A DNA stretch of 64,000 bases, taken from positions 34,095 to 98,094 of the forward strand of contig MFNS01000006.1 of the NCBI GenBank assembly GCA_001783805.1, in the 5' to 3' direction. The stretch comes from Candidatus Levybacteria bacterium RIFCSPHIGHO2_01_FULL_40_16. Lineage in GTDB: Bacteria > Patescibacteriota > Microgenomatia > Levybacterales > UBA12049. Positions within the stretch are counted from its first letter, which is position 1. Each line of letters opens with the position of its first letter. The position numbers and the translations under genes were made by a program. Positions 13,385-59,278 of this stretch are shown here, piece by piece. The notes beneath the pieces are model-generated. The model worked only from the letters and a program-made list of their open reading frames with translations. It was not told the origin of the DNA and searched no databases.

Positions 13385-13409
13385 TAATAATATACTTGTT
13401 CAAAAAGTG

Positions 13410-13480
13410 TCGGGATGCAGGGAATTGAACCCTGGCTACCGCACCCCCAGCGCGGCGTACTACCGTTATACGACATCCCG
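13410..13480 (-). tRNA. tRNA-Pro (anticodon GGG)
   Basis: Cloverleaf folded by hand: 7-bp acceptor CGGGATG/CATCCCG, anticodon loop CTGGGGG, T-loop TTCAATT; no encoded CCA. Confidence 0.8.
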
Positions 13481-23157: not shown

Positions 23158-23620
23158 ATTTTACTTTGTCGCCATTTTTAAATTTATATTTTTCAGAGAG
23201 ACCGGCCTGAATTTCTAAAACTTTGTCTGACGGTCCTACCGGAGTATAAATTATTGGACTTTCCTTATTATCTTTTGGAGGTTGAGCATTGTTTTTTATT
23301 TCAACTATCGTGTCGGTCTTAATATAAATTATGTCAATTGGAAATTTCATATTCTTCATCCAAAAAGAATAATAGTCGGGCTTATCGAATAGAAAAATCA
23401 TTCCCTGATCCTGTTGAAGTTCTTTGGTTTCGGACAAGCCTATTTCCCGCTCTTGCTGCGATGCTGCTGCAATTACTCTAAAACTATGGCCAGCGATTGT
23501 TACGGTTGGAGTTTTTTTAAAAAGAGATAATGATCCGCCGCCGGTTAGGTAGTTTTGAGTAAAATACATGGCTCCGGCAACGATAAGCAAAAGCGCAAAT
23601 ACCAATAATACTTTTTTCAT
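23138..23620 (-). CDS. DUF192 family protein
   Basis: Signal/TM then GMIFLFD...FWMKNMKFPIDIIYI, typical DUF192. Confidence 0.55.
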   Translation of the reverse strand: MKKVLLVFALLLIVAGAMYFTQNYLTGGGSLSLFKKTPTVTIAGHSFRVIAAASQQEREIGLSETKELQQDQGMIFLFDKPDYYSFWMKNMKFPIDIIYIKTDTIVEIKNNAQPPKDNKESPIIYTPVGPSDKVLEIQAGLSEKYKFKNGDKVKYENLGN

Positions 23621-24102
23621 TAATTCACATTAATTAATTTCATGTATTTAGTTGTTGAGTGGTTTTGAATTTTTTTGACTGCATAAATAACTTTGCCCTG
23701 AACTAATTTTGCCTGTCTTCTTTTATGTCTCACATATGGGTCGCCTTGGGTAGTCGCAATTATGTCAGGGCGTATTTCGACCATGAGTTTATCATACAGA
23801 TCATTATTTGTCATGTTTTTAAGCATGATTATATAACTAACACTTTCAAGGGAAGATAAGACTTTCGCGCGGTCTTGCTGGGAATTTATTGGCCGGTGTT
23901 TACCTTTTTCTCTTGCGGCTTTACTGTCATCCTCCAGTAATAAGAAGAGATAGTTGGCATATTTTTTTGATTTTTCCAAAAACTTGATGTGGCCTAAATG
24001 CAATATGTCAAAAAATCCGCCAACAACAACAATTGTTTCGTTTAATTTTCTAATTTTTTTTGCGATTTCGATAGCTTCTTTTATATCTAAGATTTTTTTC
24101 AC
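23620..24102 (-). CDS. cytidylyltransferase-like protein (RfaE domain II / heptose-1-P adenylyltransferase-like)
   Basis: GTG start; GGFFDILHLGHIKFL (HxGH) and KGKHRPI blocks. Confidence 0.5.
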   Translation of the reverse strand: MKKILDIKEAIEIAKKIRKLNETIVVVGGFFDILHLGHIKFLEKSKKYANYLFLLLEDDSKAAREKGKHRPINSQQDRAKVLSSLESVSYIIMLKNMTNNDLYDKLMVEIRPDIIATTQGDPYVRHKRRQAKLVQGKVIYAVKKIQNHSTTKYMKLINVN

Positions 24103-24159
24103 AATTTTTAATTTTCAATTTTTAATTTTCATTGAAAATTTTAAATTTCAAATTTCAAA
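24103..24159. repeat. A/T-only heptamer-like repeats with 8-bp palindrome (AATTTTCA-tt-TGAAAATT) between convergent genes
   Basis: aattttc aattttt aattttc attgaaaatt ttaaatttcaaatttcaaa. Confidence 0.5.
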
Positions 24160-30387: not shown

Positions 30388-31938
30388 TTGAGTGACAGCC
30401 TGTATAATATTGATATGTTTTGGGTGGATAGCGTAGCTGCAGAATTAAAAAAGAGAAAATTATCTCTGGAGTGGGTAGATGATATGAAAACCCCATCCGG
30501 CAGAATCCACGTTGGCGCTCTACGCGGTGTAGTAGTCCATGATTTGGTTTTCAAAGCATTAAAGGAGTTGGGTGTTAAGACAAAATACACTTATATTTTT
30601 GACAATCACGATCCAATGGACTCTCTGCCCGTATATCTTCAAAAAGAAAAATTTGAAAAATATCTGGGAATGCCGCTTTTTAAAATCCCTTCTCCAGCTG
30701 CTGGATTCAGCGACTATGCCCAGTATTATGCAAAAGAATTTATGGAAGTTTTTAATAAAATCGGCTGCCATCCTGAAATTTTATGGTCAACGGATTTATA
30801 TAAAAGCGGAAAAATGAACCCCCTGATAAAAGAATGTTTAGATGAGGCTTCCGAAATAAGAAAAATTTATGAAGATCTTTACAAGAAAAAAATTGACAAA
30901 AAATGGTATCCTTTTCAGCCGTATTGTCCAAATTGCAGTAAGGTTTCGACGACAAAAGTTTATAACTGGGATGGGGAAAAAGTTTCATTTACATGCGAAA
31001 TAGACGCTGTTGTCTGGACAAAAGGATGCGGATTTAAGGGGAAAATGTCACCTTTTAGTAATGAAAAAGGAATTGCAGGCAAGCTTTCCTGGAAAGTGGA
31101 GTGGGCTGCGAAATGGAAAGTTTTAGGCATAACCGTTGAAGGAGCAGGCGAAGATCATATGAGCAAGGGCGGATCGCATGATTTGGCAAGCCTTATCTGC
31201 GAAAGAGTGATTAATTATCCTGTTCCGTACCCTTTGCCTTATGCGTTTTTTTTAATAGGAGGCAGAAAGATGTCTTCTTCGAAAGGCCGCGGGTCGTCCG
31301 CTCCTGAAATGCTTGAAATTTTACCGCCGGAAATCCTGCGCTTCTTAATGGTAAAAACAAAAGTCAGTCAACAGATTAATTTTGATCCCAGCGAAGACAC
31401 TGTACCCAAACTTTTTGATGATTATCAAAAAGCAGCCGAGGCATATTTTGAAAAGAAAGATGAGAACCTAGCAAGGATTTTTAAATTATCGCAAATAGAT
31501 AAAGTAAAAAAACCACCGAGCATTAGATTCTCCGTTTTGGCACAATGGGTGCAAATGCCCAACATGGAAAAAGAAATAAAGAAGGAAAGTCTTGAGGAAT
31601 GGGAGTCTTATGCAAAAATTTGGGTTGAAAAATATGCTCCAAACGAAATTAAATTTTCTATCCAAGAAAAAATACCAGAGGCTTCTAAAAAACTTTCTCA
31701 AAAACAAAAAGAATATTTGCTTAAAGTCTCCTCATTTTTAGATAATAATTGGGACGCAGAGGAATTTCAAAAGAAACTTTATGAATGGGCAAAGGAGATA
31801 AGCTTATCCCCTACAGAAGCATTCCAAGCATTATATGTGTCGCTTATTGGTAAAGATTACGGACCAAAAGCAGCATGGCTAATTTTAAAACATAAAGATT
31901 TTGTAAAAAAACGGTTTCTTGACGCCGCTAATTCATGA
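30388..31938 (+). CDS. lysK: lysine--tRNA ligase, class I (archaeal type)
   Basis: Class I signatures: HVGALRG (HIGH-like) and KMSSSKG (KMSKS). Confidence 0.85.
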   Translation: MSDSLYNIDMFWVDSVAAELKKRKLSLEWVDDMKTPSGRIHVGALRGVVVHDLVFKALKELGVKTKYTYIFDNHDPMDSLPVYLQKEKFEKYLGMPLFKIPSPAAGFSDYAQYYAKEFMEVFNKIGCHPEILWSTDLYKSGKMNPLIKECLDEASEIRKIYEDLYKKKIDKKWYPFQPYCPNCSKVSTTKVYNWDGEKVSFTCEIDAVVWTKGCGFKGKMSPFSNEKGIAGKLSWKVEWAAKWKVLGITVEGAGEDHMSKGGSHDLASLICERVINYPVPYPLPYAFFLIGGRKMSSSKGRGSSAPEMLEILPPEILRFLMVKTKVSQQINFDPSEDTVPKLFDDYQKAAEAYFEKKDENLARIFKLSQIDKVKKPPSIRFSVLAQWVQMPNMEKEIKKESLEEWESYAKIWVEKYAPNEIKFSIQEKIPEASKKLSQKQKEYLLKVSSFLDNNWDAEEFQKKLYEWAKEISLSPTEAFQALYVSLIGKDYGPKAAWLILKHKDFVKKRFLDAANS

Positions 31939-32561: not shown

Positions 32562-33857
32562 ATGATAGATTTAAACTTTTTAAGAAATAATCCGCAATTA
32601 ATTCAAAAGGCAGCGCTTGATAAAAATATTGACATTAACATTAATCATATTTTGGAAATAGATAAAAAGTACAAAGAATTGTCAATTTCCGTTCAGAAAC
32701 TCCGGGAGGAAAGGAATGTGCTAACGGAAAAAATTAAAAGAGATCCCAAGCAATTTGATAGAAAAGGCGCACAGAGCTTAAAGCAAAAATTAGAGAAAGA
32801 AGAAAAAGCACTTTCTGCAGTTTGGGAAGAATTAAAAATAGAATTACTTAAAATTCCAAATGTCCCAGCAGTAAATACGCCCATTGGTCCCAATAGTAAA
32901 TTCGATAAAGAAATTCGTAGGTGGGGAAAAATACCAAAATTTGATTTTCCAATAAAAAATCATATAGAAATTGGAAAGAATTTAGATATCTTAGATTTTG
33001 TTGCTGGGGCTAAAGTTTCCGGTTTTCGCGGTTATTATTTAAAAAACGAGGGGGCTTTATTACATTGGGCAGTTCTAAATTTTGCCTTTGCGAAAATGAT
33101 CTCACATGGATTTACCCCCATGGTTCCTCCGACCTTAATTCACGAATTCGTTTTGGTGGGAAGCGGTCATTTTCCATTTGGCAAACGAGATATTTATCAG
33201 ATTGCCAATCCCGGGAAATTAGAAAGCGGTGAGGAAATTAAAAACCCTATTTATTTAGGTGGAACTTCCGAACCTGCACTTCTGGCTTATTTTGCAGATA
33301 AAATTTTAACAGAAAAAGAATTACCTATTAAGATTTGTGCCCTTACCCAATGTTATCGGTCTGAGGTTGGGGATTACGGTAAAGATGTTAAAGGCTTATA
33401 TCGTATACACGAATTTACTAAAGTTGAACAAGTCGTAATTTGCAGGAATGATTTGAAAGAGTCAGAAAAACTACACCAGGAAATGCAGTCTATTTCGGAA
33501 GAGATTTTGCAAGAATTAGATCTTTCTTATCATGTTGTGCAAAATTCAACCGGAGATATGGGTGCAGGTAAATATAAAATGTTTGATATTGAAACTTGGA
33601 TGCCTGCACGAAATAATTACGGAGAAACTCATTCAAATTCTAATTTAACTGATTGGCAAGCACGCAGACTTAATATGAAATTTAAAGATCGAAAAGGAAT
33701 TGTTAATTATTGTTATACTTTAAACAATACAGTTATTGCTTCTCCAAGAATATTGATTGCAATCTTGGAAAATTATCAAAAGGCCGACGGAAGTGTTTTA
33801 ATTCCAAAAATTTTACAAAAATATTTAAACATAGAAAAAATAACTCCAAGTAAATAA
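32562..33857 (+). CDS. serS: serine--tRNA ligase
   Basis: N-terminal coiled coil; class II motifs (FRSEVG, GDYGKD). Confidence 0.9.
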   Translation: MIDLNFLRNNPQLIQKAALDKNIDININHILEIDKKYKELSISVQKLREERNVLTEKIKRDPKQFDRKGAQSLKQKLEKEEKALSAVWEELKIELLKIPNVPAVNTPIGPNSKFDKEIRRWGKIPKFDFPIKNHIEIGKNLDILDFVAGAKVSGFRGYYLKNEGALLHWAVLNFAFAKMISHGFTPMVPPTLIHEFVLVGSGHFPFGKRDIYQIANPGKLESGEEIKNPIYLGGTSEPALLAYFADKILTEKELPIKICALTQCYRSEVGDYGKDVKGLYRIHEFTKVEQVVICRNDLKESEKLHQEMQSISEEILQELDLSYHVVQNSTGDMGAGKYKMFDIETWMPARNNYGETHSNSNLTDWQARRLNMKFKDRKGIVNYCYTLNNTVIASPRILIAILENYQKADGSVLIPKILQKYLNIEKITPSK

Positions 33858-33858
33858 A

Positions 33859-33879
33859 TTTTCAATTTTTAATTGAAAA
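33859..33879. terminator. palindrome TTTTCAATT-ttt-AATTGAAAA just after serS stop
   Basis: Perfect 9-bp inverted repeat 2 nt after TAA. Confidence 0.4.
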
Positions 33880-34020
33880 ATGTTATTTTTTTGCCATCAT
33901 TTTTTTTGCTTGATTAACGCCCCAAACATTTATTTTTGAAGCAGAGCATTTTACTTGACAAATAAAAAAAAATTACTCAGGATAATAATTAGTATTTATA
34001 AAAAAGGAGGTGAATTCACA

Positions 34021-34071
34021 ATGGCAAGAAAAAAAGCAAAGAGAAAGAAGAGAAAGAAGAGAAAGAAGTAA
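34021..34071 (+). CDS. 16-codon poly-Lys/Arg small ORF (MARKKAKRKKRKKRKK) with strong SD; leader peptide or tiny basic protein
   Basis: AAAAAGGAGGTG 7 nt upstream of ATG; followed by terminator hairpin and then secA. Confidence 0.35.
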   Translation: MARKKAKRKKRKKRKK

Positions 34072-34112
34072 TTGGTAAGCAATTTGGAGTATTACCAATT
34101 GATCAGTTGGTA

Positions 34113-34150
34113 TCCCCTCTTTCTTAAAGAAAGAGGGGATTTTCTTTTTG
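34113..34150 (+). terminator. intrinsic-terminator-like hairpin (CCCCTCTTTC-ttaaa-GAAAGAGGGG + T-rich) 19 nt before secA ATG
   Basis: 10-bp perfect stem plus ATTTTCTTTTTG; 25-nt core identical to rnpB P3 hairpin (17471-17495). Confidence 0.55.
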
Positions 34151-34168
34151 TTGTGATAAAATAAGTAT

Positions 34169-36832
34169 ATGTTTAATTTCATTGGTAAAATTTTTGATTC
34201 TAACGAAAAAGAAATAAATAAATTAAAACCAATTGTTTCGGAGACTAATTCATTTGAAGAAAAATTTAAAAAATTAAAGGACAAAGACTTTCCTTTAAAA
34301 ACAAAAGAATTTAAGGAGAGAGTAAGGGACGGAGAATCTTTGGATCTCTTGTTACCCGAAGCATTTGCAATCGTTCGCGAGGCATCGAGAAGATCTATCG
34401 GGCAGCGGCATTATGATGTTCAACTAATGGCAGGAATAACACTGGCGAGCGGAAAAATTGCAGAACAAAAAACAGGAGAGGGAAAAACCCTCTCCTCAGT
34501 TCCGGCATTATATCTACATAGTCTAACTGGCAAAGGTACTCATTTGGTTACCGTCAATGATTATCTGGCCCGCCGTGATGCGGGATGGATGGGTCCGATA
34601 TTTAATCTTCTTGGAATAACGGTTTCTTCAATTATCAATGATACATCTTTTATCTTTGATCCAAATTTTGTCAATAAAGACGCGCAAGATCCCAGACTTT
34701 CTCACTTAAGACCAATTACCCGAAAAGAAGCTTACGGGGCAGATGTTACTTATGGAATAAATTCGGAATTTGGTTTTGATTATCTTCGAGATAATATGGC
34801 TCAATCGATAGAGGAAACAGTGCAGCGGGGATATTATTATGCGATTGTTGATGAAGTTGACTCAGTTTTGATCGACGAAGCGCGAACTCCACATATAATT
34901 TCTGCTCCGGACGAATCTCCAACGCAAAAATATTATGAATATGCAAAGTTGGTTGATAACTTAAATCCGGACATAGATTATAAAATTGACGAAAAATTAA
35001 GAACTGCCCATCTGACAGATCATGGTATCGGAAAAATTGAAAAACTTTATGGAATTAATAATATTTATGAAAAAGATTTTAATACTGTTTATCATTTGGA
35101 AGCGGCATTGAAAGCCCGGACATTATTCAAAAAAGAAAAAGATTATATCGTGAAAGATAATCAAGTCATTCTGGTTGATGAATTTACCGGGCGGCTCATG
35201 ATAGGCAGAAGACTTTCCGAAGGATTGCATCAGGCAATAGAAGCAAAAGAAAATGTTTCGATACAACGGGAATCAAAGACAATGGCAACGGTATCTTTGC
35301 AAAATTATTTTAGAATGTATGAAAAATTAGCAGGAATGACGGGAACGGCTGTTACGGAAGCACGCGAATTTCATAAAATCTATAATCTTTCGGTTGTTGT
35401 AATTCCCACAAATAAATTAATGATTCGATGCGATCATCAGGATTTAGTTTATAAAACCGGACGGGCTAAATTATCTGCGGTTGCCAACGAAATTGAAAAA
35501 ACTCACAAAACCGGACAACCTATTTTAGTTGGTACAACATCAATAGACAAAAATGAATTGATATCGGAACTTTTAAGGCGTCGCGGAATTAAGCATGAGA
35601 TTTTGAATGCTAAAAATCACGAACAGGAAGCAAGAATAATTGCTATGGCCGGAGAAAAAGGCGCTGTAACTGTGGCAACCAATATGGCAGGCCGGGGTGT
35701 GGATATTATTTTGGGCGGAGAAACACCTTCTGCAGGTGAGAATTCAGGTTTATTTAAAAAATGGCAAAAAGAACATGATGAAGTTGTGGGGCTTGGCGGA
35801 TTATATGTAATTGGTACCGAAAGACATGAGTCCCGAAGAATAGATAATCAGTTGCGGGGAAGATCGGGTCGTCAGGGAGACCCGGGAGCATCCCGATTCT
35901 TTGTTGCGTTGGATGATGAAATAATGAGGCTTTTTGGCGGAGATACAATATCGGGAGTCATGACACGATTTAATATGCCTGAAGATGTTCCGTTACAGCA
36001 CATGATTGTTTCCAGGGCAATTGAGCAAGCGCAGACAAAAGTTGAAGGATTTAATTTTGATATTAGGAAACATCTGGTTGATTATGATGATGTCCTAAAT
36101 AAGCAAAGGGAAATAATTTACAAAAGACGAAGAGTAGTTTTGGAAAATAAAGAATCTCTGGAAAAAGAAATAATGGAAAAAATCGATACGTCTTTAGCAA
36201 CTATTGTTAATATTCATACAGCTCAAGTGGGCGATGATAAACCTATTGATGAAAAAATAATTGATGATTTTACTACAATACTTCCTTTCGATGAATCTTC
36301 CAAAAAGCAATTAATAAAACAATTAGAAGTAGCAGTGGGTATAGAGCAGAAAATAACCTTTTTGACCAGCATTGCTCGCGATATTTATAATCAGCGGAAA
36401 AAACAATTGGGAGAAGAGATGATGAAGCAAATTGAAAGATATGTGATGTTATCGGTTAGCGATACGCTTTGGATGGATCATTTGGATGCGGTTGAAAATC
36501 TAAGGGGGGGAATTGGGCTTCGGGGCTATGGGCAAAGAGATCCGCTGGTTGAGTACAAGAATGAAGCTTATGCGATGTTTGAACAGTTAATTAATGCAAT
36601 AGATGATGAAATCGTGCATAGAATTTACAGAATTCAGATACAGCAGGCTCCGCAAATGCATCAACACGTAAGAGAACAGGCAGCCGGTTCAGCAGTTGGC
36701 ATTTCTGAAACTTCAATTAATAATAAAAAATCCACAACAAGTAATCCCGTAGATAAAAAAAAGATTGGGCGCAATGATCCTTGTTATTGCGGATCGGGAA
36801 AAAAATACAAAAAATGCCACTACCCTAATTAG
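34169..36832 (+). CDS. secA: preprotein translocase ATPase SecA
   Basis: DEAD motor, PPXD, C-terminal zinc-binding CYCGSGKKYKKCH. Confidence 0.95.
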   Translation: MFNFIGKIFDSNEKEINKLKPIVSETNSFEEKFKKLKDKDFPLKTKEFKERVRDGESLDLLLPEAFAIVREASRRSIGQRHYDVQLMAGITLASGKIAEQKTGEGKTLSSVPALYLHSLTGKGTHLVTVNDYLARRDAGWMGPIFNLLGITVSSIINDTSFIFDPNFVNKDAQDPRLSHLRPITRKEAYGADVTYGINSEFGFDYLRDNMAQSIEETVQRGYYYAIVDEVDSVLIDEARTPHIISAPDESPTQKYYEYAKLVDNLNPDIDYKIDEKLRTAHLTDHGIGKIEKLYGINNIYEKDFNTVYHLEAALKARTLFKKEKDYIVKDNQVILVDEFTGRLMIGRRLSEGLHQAIEAKENVSIQRESKTMATVSLQNYFRMYEKLAGMTGTAVTEAREFHKIYNLSVVVIPTNKLMIRCDHQDLVYKTGRAKLSAVANEIEKTHKTGQPILVGTTSIDKNELISELLRRRGIKHEILNAKNHEQEARIIAMAGEKGAVTVATNMAGRGVDIILGGETPSAGENSGLFKKWQKEHDEVVGLGGLYVIGTERHESRRIDNQLRGRSGRQGDPGASRFFVALDDEIMRLFGGDTISGVMTRFNMPEDVPLQHMIVSRAIEQAQTKVEGFNFDIRKHLVDYDDVLNKQREIIYKRRRVVLENKESLEKEIMEKIDTSLATIVNIHTAQVGDDKPIDEKIIDDFTTILPFDESSKKQLIKQLEVAVGIEQKITFLTSIARDIYNQRKKQLGEEMMKQIERYVMLSVSDTLWMDHLDAVENLRGGIGLRGYGQRDPLVEYKNEAYAMFEQLINAIDDEIVHRIYRIQIQQAPQMHQHVREQAAGSAVGISETSINNKKSTTSNPVDKKKIGRNDPCYCGSGKKYKKCHYPN

Positions 36833-51938: not shown

Positions 51939-52034
51939 AATTTTAAATTTGCAATTTTCAATCAAATCTAAATTTTAAAATTAAAACATTAAAAATTCAT
52001 TAAAAATTAAAAATTTTAAATTGAAAATTAAGTT
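51939..52034. repeat. 96-nt A/T-only low-complexity heptamer-like repeat tract (AAATTTT/AAAATTA units) filling rmlD-ugd intergenic
   Basis: Essentially G/C-free; periodic aaatttt, aaaatta, aaaattc units. Confidence 0.5.
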
Positions 52035-53327
52035 ATGACAATAACTTTTGTAGGACATGGGTATGTAGGTTTGGTAACCGCTTCTGTTTTTGCAGATCTC
52101 GGCAACACAGTTTGGGTTATCGGACATACCAAAGAAAAGATTGAAAATCTCAAAAAAGGCATATTACCCATTTATGAACCGGGACTTGAAGAAATTGTCA
52201 GAAGGAATGTTAAAGCAAAAAGACTATTGTTTACTCTGGATTATAAAGAATCTGTTCCAAATTCAGATGCTGTTTTTATAACAGTTGGTACCCCTCCAAA
52301 ACCGACAGGCGAAGCTGATTTGTCGATTGTTTTTGAAGTCGCCAAGAAAATCGGAGAGAATCTGGATGGATATACCGTGGTCGTAACAAAAAGTACGGTA
52401 CCGGTTGGAACAAATAAAATAATCAATGAAATAATTGCTGCGGCAAAACCCGCAAAAGCAAAGTTTGACATCGCATCTATTCCTGAATTCTTAAGAGAAG
52501 GACAAGCCATATCGGATACGCTTCATCCAGATAGAATTGTAATCGGTACCAATTCCAAGCCCGCAGAGAAATTACTGATTGAACTTCATAAGTCTATCGA
52601 TGGAAGCTATGTATTGACCAATATCGAAACTGCGGAAATGATTAAGTATGCTGCCAACTCATTTCTCGCCACAAAGATTTCTTTTGCGAATGCAATTGCT
52701 CATCTGTCAGAGCTAACCGATGCGGATGGATCAAAAGTTTTAGAGGCAGTGGGGCTTGATAAACGGGTTGGCAGTCAATTCTTGCTTGCGGGAGCAGGAT
52801 ATGGAGGAAGCTGTTTCCCAAAAGATGTAAAAGCCATGATAACAATTGCAAAAAGATCAGGATACGATTTTTCCCTTCTTAAAGCTGTTGAGGAAATTAA
52901 CCAACAGGCAATGCATGGTATAGTTGAAAAAGCAAAGAAGATGTTGGGCGGGAAGGTAAAAGACAAAACGATTGGGATACTTGGCTTATCCTTTAAGCCC
53001 GACACGGACGATATGAGAGATGCTCCTTCAATCTTTATCATAAATAGCCTTCTTAGAGAAGGCGCAAAAATAAAAGCTTATGATCCTATTGCGATGAATA
53101 ACGCAAAAAGAATTCTAAGAAATGTTGATTTTCAACCTGATTCTTATTCTGTTGCCCAAGATTGCGACATTCTGATTATAATAACCGAATGGAATGAATT
53201 TAGACAACTTGATCTAAGGGAAATAAAAAAGTATATGAGCAAACCTGTCCTTCTGGATGGAAGAAATATTTATGATCCCCGGAAATTAAGAGAAATGGGA
53301 TTTATATATACTGGAGTTGGTCGATGA
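52035..53327 (+). CDS. ugd: UDP-glucose 6-dehydrogenase
   Basis: VGHGYVGL NAD motif, catalytic GGSCFPKDV. Confidence 0.85.
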   Translation: MTITFVGHGYVGLVTASVFADLGNTVWVIGHTKEKIENLKKGILPIYEPGLEEIVRRNVKAKRLLFTLDYKESVPNSDAVFITVGTPPKPTGEADLSIVFEVAKKIGENLDGYTVVVTKSTVPVGTNKIINEIIAAAKPAKAKFDIASIPEFLREGQAISDTLHPDRIVIGTNSKPAEKLLIELHKSIDGSYVLTNIETAEMIKYAANSFLATKISFANAIAHLSELTDADGSKVLEAVGLDKRVGSQFLLAGAGYGGSCFPKDVKAMITIAKRSGYDFSLLKAVEEINQQAMHGIVEKAKKMLGGKVKDKTIGILGLSFKPDTDDMRDAPSIFIINSLLREGAKIKAYDPIAMNNAKRILRNVDFQPDSYSVAQDCDILIIITEWNEFRQLDLREIKKYMSKPVLLDGRNIYDPRKLREMGFIYTGVGR

Positions 53328-59020: not shown

Positions 59021-59056
59021 AAGAAAAACCCCACACCATGCAGTGAGGGGTTTTTG
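59021..59056. terminator. bidirectional intrinsic terminator (A-tract, CCCC-AC ... GTGAGGGG, T-tract) between convergent genes
   Basis: AAGAAAAACCCCACACCATGCAGTGAGGGGTTTTTGC. Confidence 0.5.
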
Positions 59057-59110: not shown

Positions 59111-59254
59111 TTAGGCTTTTCCAATTCTGTACATTCCTGTTCCACAAACTGGGCATTTGCCTTTCATTGCCGGTTTACCGTTTTTCATTGTAACTGCTTG
59201 AGCGCTTGGGTCTTCTCTCTTCGCTCTGCATTTTACGCAGTACATTGATGCCAT
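59111..59254 (-). CDS. small zinc-ribbon protein (47 aa; CxxC...CxxC), not in ORF track
   Basis: MASMYCVKCRAKREDPSAQAVTMKNGKPAMKGKCPVCGTGMYRIGKA; strong SD GGGAGGTG 7 nt upstream; terminator downstream. Confidence 0.5.
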   Translation of the reverse strand: MASMYCVKCRAKREDPSAQAVTMKNGKPAMKGKCPVCGTGMYRIGKA

Positions 59255-59278
59255 ATTTATTTTCACCTCCCTTCCTAG

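Follow-up and report, generated by a model that had tools for sequence, protein, structure and literature searches.

A probable micro-gene lies upstream of secA

The DNA analysed here is a 64-kb stretch (the window) of contig MFNS01000006.1, which SecA relatives place in Candidatus Levybacteria (Microgenomates, Patescibacteria/candidate phyla radiation, CPR). The subject of this analysis is a very short open reading frame (micro-ORF) between the serS and secA genes of the window, together with the signals that flank it (the module). A first-pass annotation had pointed to a 16-codon Lys/Arg ORF with a strong Shine-Dalgarno (SD) site upstream of secA, and direct reading of positions 33400-34600 bore this out. 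The frame runs from the ATG at 34021-34023 to the TAA at 34069-34071, comprises 16 sense codons (ATG GCA AGA AAA AAA GCA AAG AGA AAG AAG AGA AAG AAG AGA AAG AAG TAA) and contains, as had been described, a run of seven A, at positions 34029-34035. Its product, MARKKAKRKKRKKRKK, consists of nine Lys and four Arg residues with M, A and A as the remainder, so that the earlier count of 14 Lys/Arg codons has to be corrected to 13 of 16. On both strands of the window this is the only short Lys/Arg-rich ORF that is preceded by an SD. The features of the locus are as follows.

33934..33943, plus strand: conserved TTTTGAAGCA box, with a TTGAAGC core whose first base precedes that of the -35 hexamer by 19 nt; its spacing before TTGACA is fixed in most related loci
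33955..33960, plus strand: -35 hexamer TTGACA of the putative promoter of the micro-gene; (C/A)TTGACAA is conserved in most of 55 genome loci
33981..33986, plus strand: tentative -10-like box GATAAT, 20 nt after TTGACA; (G/T)ATAA(T/A) stands at a constant 20-nt spacing in relatives
34003..34013, plus strand: full SD AAAGGAGGTGA, with 7 nt between GGAGGTGA and the ATG
34021..34071, plus strand: micro-ORF, 16 codons plus TAA
34072..34098, plus strand: hairpin H1, arms TTGGTAA (34072-34078) and TTACCAA (34092-34098), starting on the first base past the stop codon
34093..34112, plus strand: hairpin H2, TACCAATT-GATC-AGTTGGTA, abutting the terminator and the most sequence-conserved element of the module
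34112..34150, plus strand: intrinsic terminator (-19.9 kcal/mol), with a 13-bp stem at 34112-34140 that includes six G-C pairs, a TAA loop and then TTTCTTTTTG
34152..34162, plus strand: extended -10 box TGTGATAAAAT, which ends 6 nt short of the secA ATG and is a candidate leaderless promoter read from the sequence
34169..36832, plus strand: secA, 887 aa (Pfam SecA_DEAD, SecA_PP_bind, P-loop_SecA, SecA_SW, SEC-C), a neighbouring gene outside the predicted transcription unit of the micro-gene

The SD of the micro-ORF is an outlier in this genome. Pairing of the 22 nt upstream of each start with an assumed canonical 16S 3' end gave a predicted SD:anti-SD duplex of -17.7 kcal/mol for the micro-ORF, whereas the 65 window ORFs of at least 120 aa (the large ORFs) had a median of -2.1 kcal/mol and reached -9.6 at best. 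The first-pass annotation had called it the best SD in the region, and in the window as a whole it is the strongest jointly with that of one other small gene. In relatives, GGAGGTGA(T) is kept 7-8 nt before the start codon, in a 5' untranslated region that is 25-70 nt long and harbors a hairpin in many of them. We tentatively read TTGACA and (G/T)ATAA(T/A) as the module's own promoter, the 20-nt spacing of which is non-standard. Because of this spacer, a consensus promoter scan of the region did not list the TTGACA at 33955..33960. The TTGA(A/G)GC box further upstream could be a promoter-associated element or a factor-binding site. In many relatives, similar boxes (or their complement, GCCTCAA/GCTTCGA) also precede the secA -10 box by about 8-12 nt; loci with such a box in the interval between the terminator and the secA -10 box are L008, L016, L025, L030-L032, L044, L046, L060, L072 and L080.

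The module is conserved in Levybacteria

We sampled 80 loci with one genome per GTDB species, about 75 of which had enough upstream sequence to be evaluated. An SD-led, Lys/Arg-rich ORF of 9-30 codons lies 86-290 nt upstream of secA in 55 of these ~75 genomes, and in L080 the frame is present in a 51-codon form. Typical products are MAKKKKKKK, MAKKKKRKKK, MARKRAKRRKRR, MPAKKKAKKKKK and MPVKKRKVAKKKVAAKRKTKKRK. Among 241 million metagenome records, the pattern GGAGGTGA-N6-9-ATGGCN(AAR)6 matched 72 stretches, about 58 of which show the serS/micro-ORF/secA arrangement. The window locus itself is present in the ENA assemblies ERZ27254791 and ERZ27254767. When both strands of all loci (~1 Mb) were scanned, such ORFs were found almost solely at the position upstream of secA, and the arrangement recurs at this one position in more than 100 independent related loci. 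The synteny of serS and secA is conserved as well, and where serS is more distant (L034, L072, L075, L099, L149) the module still adjoins secA. The first-pass annotation had proposed conservation of the upstream ORF and its hairpin in relatives as a check, and both proved to be strongly conserved. Thus, the micro-ORF and its surroundings are far beyond chance, since the frame is the sole one of its kind in the window, its SD duplex is an outlier and it recurs at more than 100 independent related loci.

More distant Microgenomates lack the module, as do two close relatives, L014 and L028, in which serS and secA are separated by 50-63 nt. By this distribution it is clade-specific to Levybacteria. 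Neither the window nor the loci outside this position yielded further copies, and the possibility of a repeat family was rejected. Public gene calls at the exact locus place no gene between serS and secA, an exact look-up in a collection of 15 billion proteins returned neither the long variants nor the 38-aa TTG-extended frame, and literature on poly-lysine small ORFs in the CPR yielded nothing relevant. The module thus represents a feature of Levybacteria that spans the clade and had not been described before. In unrelated metagenome contigs, SD-led poly-Lys ORFs of 9-14 aa (L087 767-796, L129 1868-1912, L131 712-753) and Lys/Ala-rich ORFs of 36-63 aa (L090 2462-2653, L097 2136-2258, L120 739-849) occur with no secA, serS or H2 nearby, which means that such frames can exist as stand-alone genes. 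The L129 ORF has its own terminator, and the L131 ORF adjoins repeated small Lys-rich proteins.

The micro-ORF is constrained at the amino acid level

The coding test set comprised 44 unique ORFs with 632 codons. These codons specify K 392, A 90, T 52, R 48, V 26, P 14, S 6, H 3 and L 1, and none of them specifies D, E, N, Q, G, I, F, Y, W, C or an internal M. The codons GAA/GAG, CAA/CAG, AAT/AAC and ATA are single steps from AAA/AAG, yet all are unused in the 44 ORFs. G is distributed over codon positions 1, 2 and 3 with counts of 116, 49 and 236 (chi-square p = 7e-30), position-1 G being found only in Ala and Val codons, and the other two frames contain many E, Q and stop codons. The ORFs start with ATG, GTG or TTG, stop with TAA or TAG and have A or P as residue 2. 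An A or P at the second position would allow removal of the N-terminal Met. We therefore read the micro-ORF as a small ORF under coding constraint that is probably translated. Arg-rich (MARKRAKRRKRR) and Lys-rich (MAKKKKKKK) versions occupy the same site and Ala, Thr and Val are tolerated, which indicates that the conserved property of the product is its positive charge and not the Lys codon.

The first-pass annotation had proposed that ribosomes stall or slide on the poly-basic, poly-A codons of the frame, and the A-runs speak against this. AAG accounts for 57-62% of the Lys codons in the micro-ORFs, compared to 24% in the window genes. The longest A-run in a micro-ORF has a mean of 6.0 and a maximum of 8, whereas the expected value is 12.6 from genomic codon usage and 6.8 when the observed codons are permuted; 0 of 2000 simulations reached 6.0 in either test. 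Homopolymer slippage is thus avoided in the micro-ORF, the opposite of what a poly-A sliding sensor needs. Taken together, the lack of acidic, amide and aromatic residues, the free exchange of Arg for Lys and the capped A-runs favor a polycationic peptide over sensing of Lys codons or poly-A. The alternative that the first-pass annotation had also raised, a real tiny and extremely basic protein that may associate with ribosomes or nucleic acids, is favored by this amino acid-level constraint and by the conservation of the module.

secA probably has its own leaderless promoter in a genome that hardly uses SD sequences

As had been described, secA has no SD. This is ordinary in this genome, because SD sites are hardly used in it: GGAGG stands 4-12 nt before the start in 0 of the 65 large ORFs, and what is unusual is the perfect SD of the micro-ORF. 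The intergenic sites in the window that combine GGAGGTGA with a start codon are only two, those of the poly-Lys ORF and of a 47-aa DUF5679 zinc-ribbon gene, which carries the second full SD of the window (duplex -17.5 kcal/mol). In 971 kb of related loci, 47 of 67 such sites belong to the micro-ORF, and the remaining ones mostly stand before small proteins of 71-165 aa (L001-L080). By their N-terminal sequence only, these SD-led small proteins include a Hsp20-like protein (L011 9440) and YeaQ/GlsB-like membrane proteins (L004 11120, L019 13132). Only a small class of genes in the Levybacteria clade may rely on SD-led translation.

The N-terminus encoded from the secA ATG at 34169 aligns with relatives from residue 1. 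A TRTGnTAARAT box (extended -10, TGTGnTAAAAT) lies downstream of the terminator in nearly all loci, and in most of them the T-tract of the terminator ends 1-20 nt before it. Among 92 unique loci the distance from the end of this box to the secA ATG is 6 nt in 28 and 7 nt in 10, so that 38 of 92 relatives have the 6-7 nt leaderless spacing, and 6-10 nt in 57. Given a conserved -10 box past the terminator that often ends 6 nt before the ATG, secA is most likely transcribed from its own promoter as a leaderless mRNA. In the remaining lineages secA is not leaderless: between the -10 box and the gene lies a structured leader of 80-170 nt, which may be a separate regulatory leader of secA. These long leaders, found in L021, L022, L027, L029, L041, L042, L045, L046, L049, L050, L061, L065, L072, L073 and L075, contain several strong hairpins (for example CCTGGCTTGTCCAGG and CCCTGACTTGATCAGGG).

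The same architecture recurs elsewhere in the window: TGnTAnnAT ends exactly 6 nt before the start of six genes, secA and five others, which implies, at the level of sequence motifs, many leaderless mRNAs in this Levybacterium. These starts, and the features of the DUF5679 gene, are listed below.

59111-59254, minus strand: 47-aa DUF5679 zinc-ribbon gene, MASMYCVKCRAKRED...CPVCGTGMYRIGKA (Pfam DUF5679, 7e-18)
~59263-59270, minus strand: SD GGGAGGTGA of the DUF5679 gene
~59027-59050, minus strand: terminator of the DUF5679 gene
20761 (minus), 21750 (minus), 29338 (minus), 34169 (plus, secA), 40147 (plus) and 46628 (plus): starts with an extended -10 (TGTGnTAnAAT), 6 nt and ATG/GTG
38064, minus strand: further start of a similar kind, with TAGTATAGT

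Similar A/T-rich repeats (aaaattgaaaattaaaaatt) are located upstream of the minus-strand gene 23620-24102 (at 24103-24152) and of 52035-53327 (at 51985-52034).

The predicted transcript ends in two conserved hairpins and a terminator

The strong hairpin with T-tract that the first-pass annotation had placed 41 nt after the ORF is a 13-bp intrinsic terminator, the stem of which starts 40 nt past the stop codon. It is the one terminator found in a consensus scan of 33700-34400. A terminator is present in 99 of 105 loci, in the form of 81 different hairpins with compensatory pair changes, and has a median stability of -18.6 kcal/mol. Stem pairs 4-9 each occur as four to six pair types, with almost no mispairs. 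Covariation of the terminator and of H2 was judged by anchored pair counts in place of a covariance model, given the arm that is common to H1 and H2 and the unequal lengths of the terminators.

H2 is found once in the window, and all 48 matches in 1.03 Mb of loci fall between the tiny ORF and secA. Its consensus is (T)TACCAATT-GATC-A(A/G)TTGGTA(A), with a self-complementary GAUC loop that is replaced by UGCA in L104 and L127. In its commonest variant, CAGTTGG, pairing is retained through a U.G wobble, the mirror-image G.U pair is found in L011 and L134, and L041/L042 have a compensated stem, CCAAAGAAT-GATC-ATCTTTTGG. Because these variants break the dyad symmetry of the DNA yet keep the pairing of the plus-strand RNA, we read H2 as an RNA hairpin and not as an operator. 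A DNA operator was rejected on two counts, as the palindrome is broken in the commonest variants and the distance from H2 to the secA -10 box ranges from ~45 to ~100 nt.

H1 starts 0-1 nt past the stop codon in 55 of 55 sequences of the first locus group (group 1). Its loop varies among relatives, some of which have an inserted hairpin. The arms of H1 copy those of H2, whereas in a second locus group the arms of the corresponding hairpin (H1') copy the H2 centre instead. In the window and in most relatives the 3' arm of H1 is also part of H2, and the two hairpins are mutually exclusive there. In about one third of the loci the arm TTACCAATTA is duplicated, so that H1 and H2 can form together.

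At Rfam gathering thresholds the whole window yielded one tRNA and no other family, and a cmscan of 33000-35000 at E <= 1 returned only sub-threshold chance matches of microRNA models to the terminator hairpin. The tRNA, tRNA-Pro(GGG) at 13409-13480 on the minus strand, is the sole RNA gene of the window according to Rfam and ARAGORN. A fourth copy of TTGGTAA, complementary to the shared TTACCAA arm, lies at 34182-34188 in the secA coding region (I-G-K codons) and is probably a coincidence. Pairing of the micro-gene RNA with the 5' end of the secA mRNA was rejected, TTGGTAA being present at this place in only 5 of 93 relatives.

A separate micro-gene probably encodes a short polycation

These data led us to regard the module as what is probably a separate, strongly expressed micro-gene that makes a short polycation, and as neither a secA leader nor a chance ORF. 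According to this model, the conserved TTGACA-type promoter would start a transcript of ~150 nt, and the full SD, very rare in this genome, would drive translation of a frame of 9-16 codons (up to 51). The product would start with M-A/P, followed by K/R with some A/T/V, and the only property that is conserved among the encoded products is a high positive charge. The transcript would end in H1 and the GAUC-loop hairpin H2, stacked against the strong terminator in an arrangement that is conserved as a structure, and secA would be transcribed separately from the extended -10 promoter as an mRNA starting at the ATG. After removal of Met, the AKKKKKKK-like peptide would most likely function as a trans-acting polycation that binds RNA, ribosomes or DNA, in the manner of bS22/eL41/bL37 or of lysine-rich H1-like nucleoid proteins, without homology to them. 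H1 and H2 probably stabilise the 3' end, and more speculatively might respond to ribosomes that terminate atop H1. A synthetic standard for the window peptide would be ARKKAKRKKRKKRKK; trypsin would destroy the peptide.

Several points weigh against this model. The promoter, transcription start, translation and stability of the peptide are all predictions from sequence, and peptides of 9-12 residues may be quickly degraded. The length of 9-51 residues and the lack of a motif beyond charge argue against a defined pocket of the bS22/eL41 type. The absence of the module from L014 and L028 indicates that it is dispensable. The strong conservation of H2 and the position of H1 exactly at the stop codon hint at a function at the RNA level, and the strict adjacency to secA at every locus leaves room for a functional link to this gene. 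It is the conservation of H2, the placement of H1 on the stop, the shared 7-mer arm and the invariant neighborhood of secA that keep our confidence at probable and no higher.

If the peptide is made, the locus would represent a conserved bacterial gene of as few as nine codons, with charge as its only conserved property. Such a micro-gene is invisible to all standard gene callers. In a bolder version of the polycation model, which we consider possible yet unlikely, an oligolysine of 8-15 residues (without Met) would be an abundant, dedicated polycation, functioning either as a ribosome-bound micro-peptide, the SD-dependent synthesis of which would report how many ribosomes have a free anti-SD tail (parallel to bS21/rpsU in Flavobacteriia), or as a genetically encoded stand-in for polyamines or nucleoid proteins in these reduced genomes, and the GAUC hairpin would be a feedback or translation-gated element. 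Were this true, the 8-15-residue oligolysine gene would be among the shortest conserved genes known. The locus also displays the organisation of gene expression in one CPR lineage, where most transcripts appear to lack a leader or an SD and only a few small genes have a full SD.

Alternative explanations

The module might instead be a dual-function small RNA, in which H1, H2 and the terminator carry the main, protein-binding or base-pairing function, translation toggles H1 versus H2 and the peptide is secondary. We regard this as unlikely. It would account for H2 being the most conserved sequence of the module and exclusive to it (48 of 48 matches), for the preservation of RNA pairing by the U.G wobble and the compensatory changes in L041/L042, for the start of H1 0-1 nt past the stop in every group-1 sequence and for H1 arms that copy the H2 arms or, in the second group, the H2 centre. 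However, no target or partner was identified (the secA copy of TTGGTAA is shared by just 5 of 93 relatives), Rfam gave no match, a constraint at the amino acid level would be needless for a mere ribosome landing pad, and loci with the duplicated arm need no switch.

A further alternative, to which we give somewhat less credence, is a ribosome-bound micro-peptide whose synthesis would be coupled to the availability of the anti-SD, that is, to a free 16S 3' tail, by analogy with rpsU autoregulation in Flavobacteriia. That this genome hardly uses the SD and that 47 of the 67 GGAGGTGA-plus-start sites in 971 kb are micro-ORFs are in its favor, as are the rpsU precedent in F. johnsoniae (PMC9976891, PMC13000453) and the existence of tiny basic ribosomal peptides (PMC10618245, PMC10085706). 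However, the SD is not exclusive to the module, since the other SD-led genes encode ordinary small proteins (Hsp20-like, YeaQ/GlsB-like, DUF5679), and 9-residue peptides of variable length fit poorly in a defined rRNA pocket. Replacement of bS21 was also rejected, as there is no obvious vacancy for it: among Microgenomates bS21 is reported to be missing only in Collierbacteria, while uL30 and bL9 are missing more widely (PMC9297842).

The first-pass annotation had favored a translation-coupled attenuator, in which formation of the terminator, and with it read-through of transcription into secA, would depend on ribosomes stalling or sliding at the poly-basic or poly-A codons. The layout does resemble that of his/trp leaders (promoter, strong SD, short ORF of one codon class, hairpins, terminator, gene), H1 and H2 share an arm in most loci and would hence be alternative folds, and the module is invariably next to secA. 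In the window, pairing between the purine-rich ORF and the terminator's pyrimidine-rich 5' arm is also possible (-7.6 kcal/mol). To assess a possible antiterminator, the RNA of 83 unique loci was folded up to the terminator loop with the 3' arm withheld. Compared to a median of -18.6 kcal/mol for the terminator itself, upstream pairing of its 5' arm gained a median of only -2.6 kcal/mol, and ~0 in many relatives. The value in the window is idiosyncratic, because the sequence that its terminator arm has by chance, CCCCTCTTTCTT, pairs with the purine-rich ORF, and relatives with CCCCTCAC or CCCCGCC arms are at ~0. H2 abuts the terminator without overlap, and 30-72 nt (mode 40) separate the terminator stem from the stop codon, too far for a terminating ribosome to reach. 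A conserved -10 box at leaderless spacing separates the terminator from secA, Lys and Arg are interchangeable so that no single tRNA is sensed, A-runs are avoided, and in about one third of the loci the duplicated arm enables H1 and H2 to coexist. Lacking a conserved antiterminator and a nearby stop codon, and with Lys/Arg interchange and a separate secA -10 box, attenuation of secA is in our view very unlikely. A Lys-tRNA sensor tied to the nearby class I lysyl-tRNA synthetase gene (30388-31938) was rejected in turn, since Arg-rich orthologues exclude Lys-specific sensing; lysK lies upstream. The locus illustrates that a promoter-ORF-hairpins-terminator layout beside a gene can mimic an attenuator without being one.

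Least probable of all is an effect at the DNA level only, in which the upstream unit would modulate the secA promoter by occlusion or polymerase hand-over and the ORF would merely stabilise the RNA, as this would fit the invariant adjacency to secA and a T-tract that in most loci ends 1-20 nt ahead of the -10 box of secA but would leave the amino acid constraint, the full SD and the conserved H2 unaccounted for, and terminators beside promoters are routine in compact genomes.

Comparison with known systems

The module is similar to the hisL, trpL and pheL leaders in that a promoter, a strong SD, an ORF of ~16 codons, hairpins with a shared arm and a terminator precede the next gene. It differs from them in the lack of an antiterminator overlap, in the interchange of Lys and Arg, in the predicted promoter of secA itself and in that secA is not a gene of amino acid biosynthesis. 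As with SecM-secA (and also MifM and VemP), a short ORF is located directly upstream of a secretion-machinery gene. Unlike SecM, the micro-peptide contains no signal or transmembrane segment and no arrest motif, and A and V are the only hydrophobic residues in the test ORFs; secA offers no ribosome-binding site to unmask, and a terminator and a promoter separate the two genes.

SR1/SR1P, RNAIII/delta-haemolysin and SgrS/SgrT are dual-function small RNAs that encode small peptides. Like these, the module appears to be a short independent RNA that combines a tiny ORF with a conserved structured RNA ending in an intrinsic terminator. It differs in that no base-pairing target was found (the secA 5' end was checked), in that it belongs to no Rfam family and in the peptide, which is a homopolymer-like polycation.

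Since the 16-aa window peptide is below the minimum length of the search tools, longer variants were queried in its place. Eight syntenic variants of 20-51 aa were compared by hmmscan with Pfam and NCBIfam (E <= 10), which returned no ribosomal family and nothing for the variants of 20-30 aa, and a phmmer search of PDB sequences with one 23-aa variant was likewise negative. The 51-aa variant of L080 matched the H1-like protein Hc2 at a sub-threshold, compositional level only (PF07382, 17.9 bits with a cut-off of 40; NF038052, 15 bits with a cut-off of 135). In composition, this variant with its KKxVKK repeats and the ORFs of L090, L097 and L120 resemble the H1-like nucleoid proteins Hc1/Hc2, whereas the usual micro-ORF products are 4-10 times shorter.

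The nearest precedents in function are bS22, eL41 and bL37 of Actinobacteria, Bacteroidota, Borrelia and eukaryotes, peptides of 24-33 aa with ~60% Lys/Arg that stem from abundant transcripts, bind rRNA through charge and were found by cryo-electron microscopy (PMC10618245, PMC10085706). The Borrelia bS22, with 61% Lys/Arg, is a tiny unannotated ribosomal peptide with an abundant transcript (PMC10618245), and bS22 and bL37 of Cutibacterium are likewise tiny, very basic and often unannotated (PMC10085706). The micro-gene product has no sequence relationship to these peptides that we could find, is mostly 9-16 aa, varies in length and has no conserved motif; like them, it would be very short, highly basic and usually missed by annotation. 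If made, the peptide would constitute a new type beside bS22, bL37, eL41 and Thx, tiny basic peptides that were found only by cryo-electron microscopy.

In Flavobacterium johnsoniae the sole gene with a strong SD is rpsU, which encodes bS21 and is autoregulated through sequestration of the anti-SD (PMC9976891, PMC13000453). The micro-gene differs from rpsU in that its product has no homology to bS21 and in that other small genes here also have a full SD, which weakens an otherwise suggestive parallel. What the two have in common is a gene for a small basic protein with an extended SD, against a genomic background in which SD sites are scarcely used. With Levybacteria, the purpose of the anti-SD in SD-poor bacteria becomes testable in a second lineage besides Bacteroidia.

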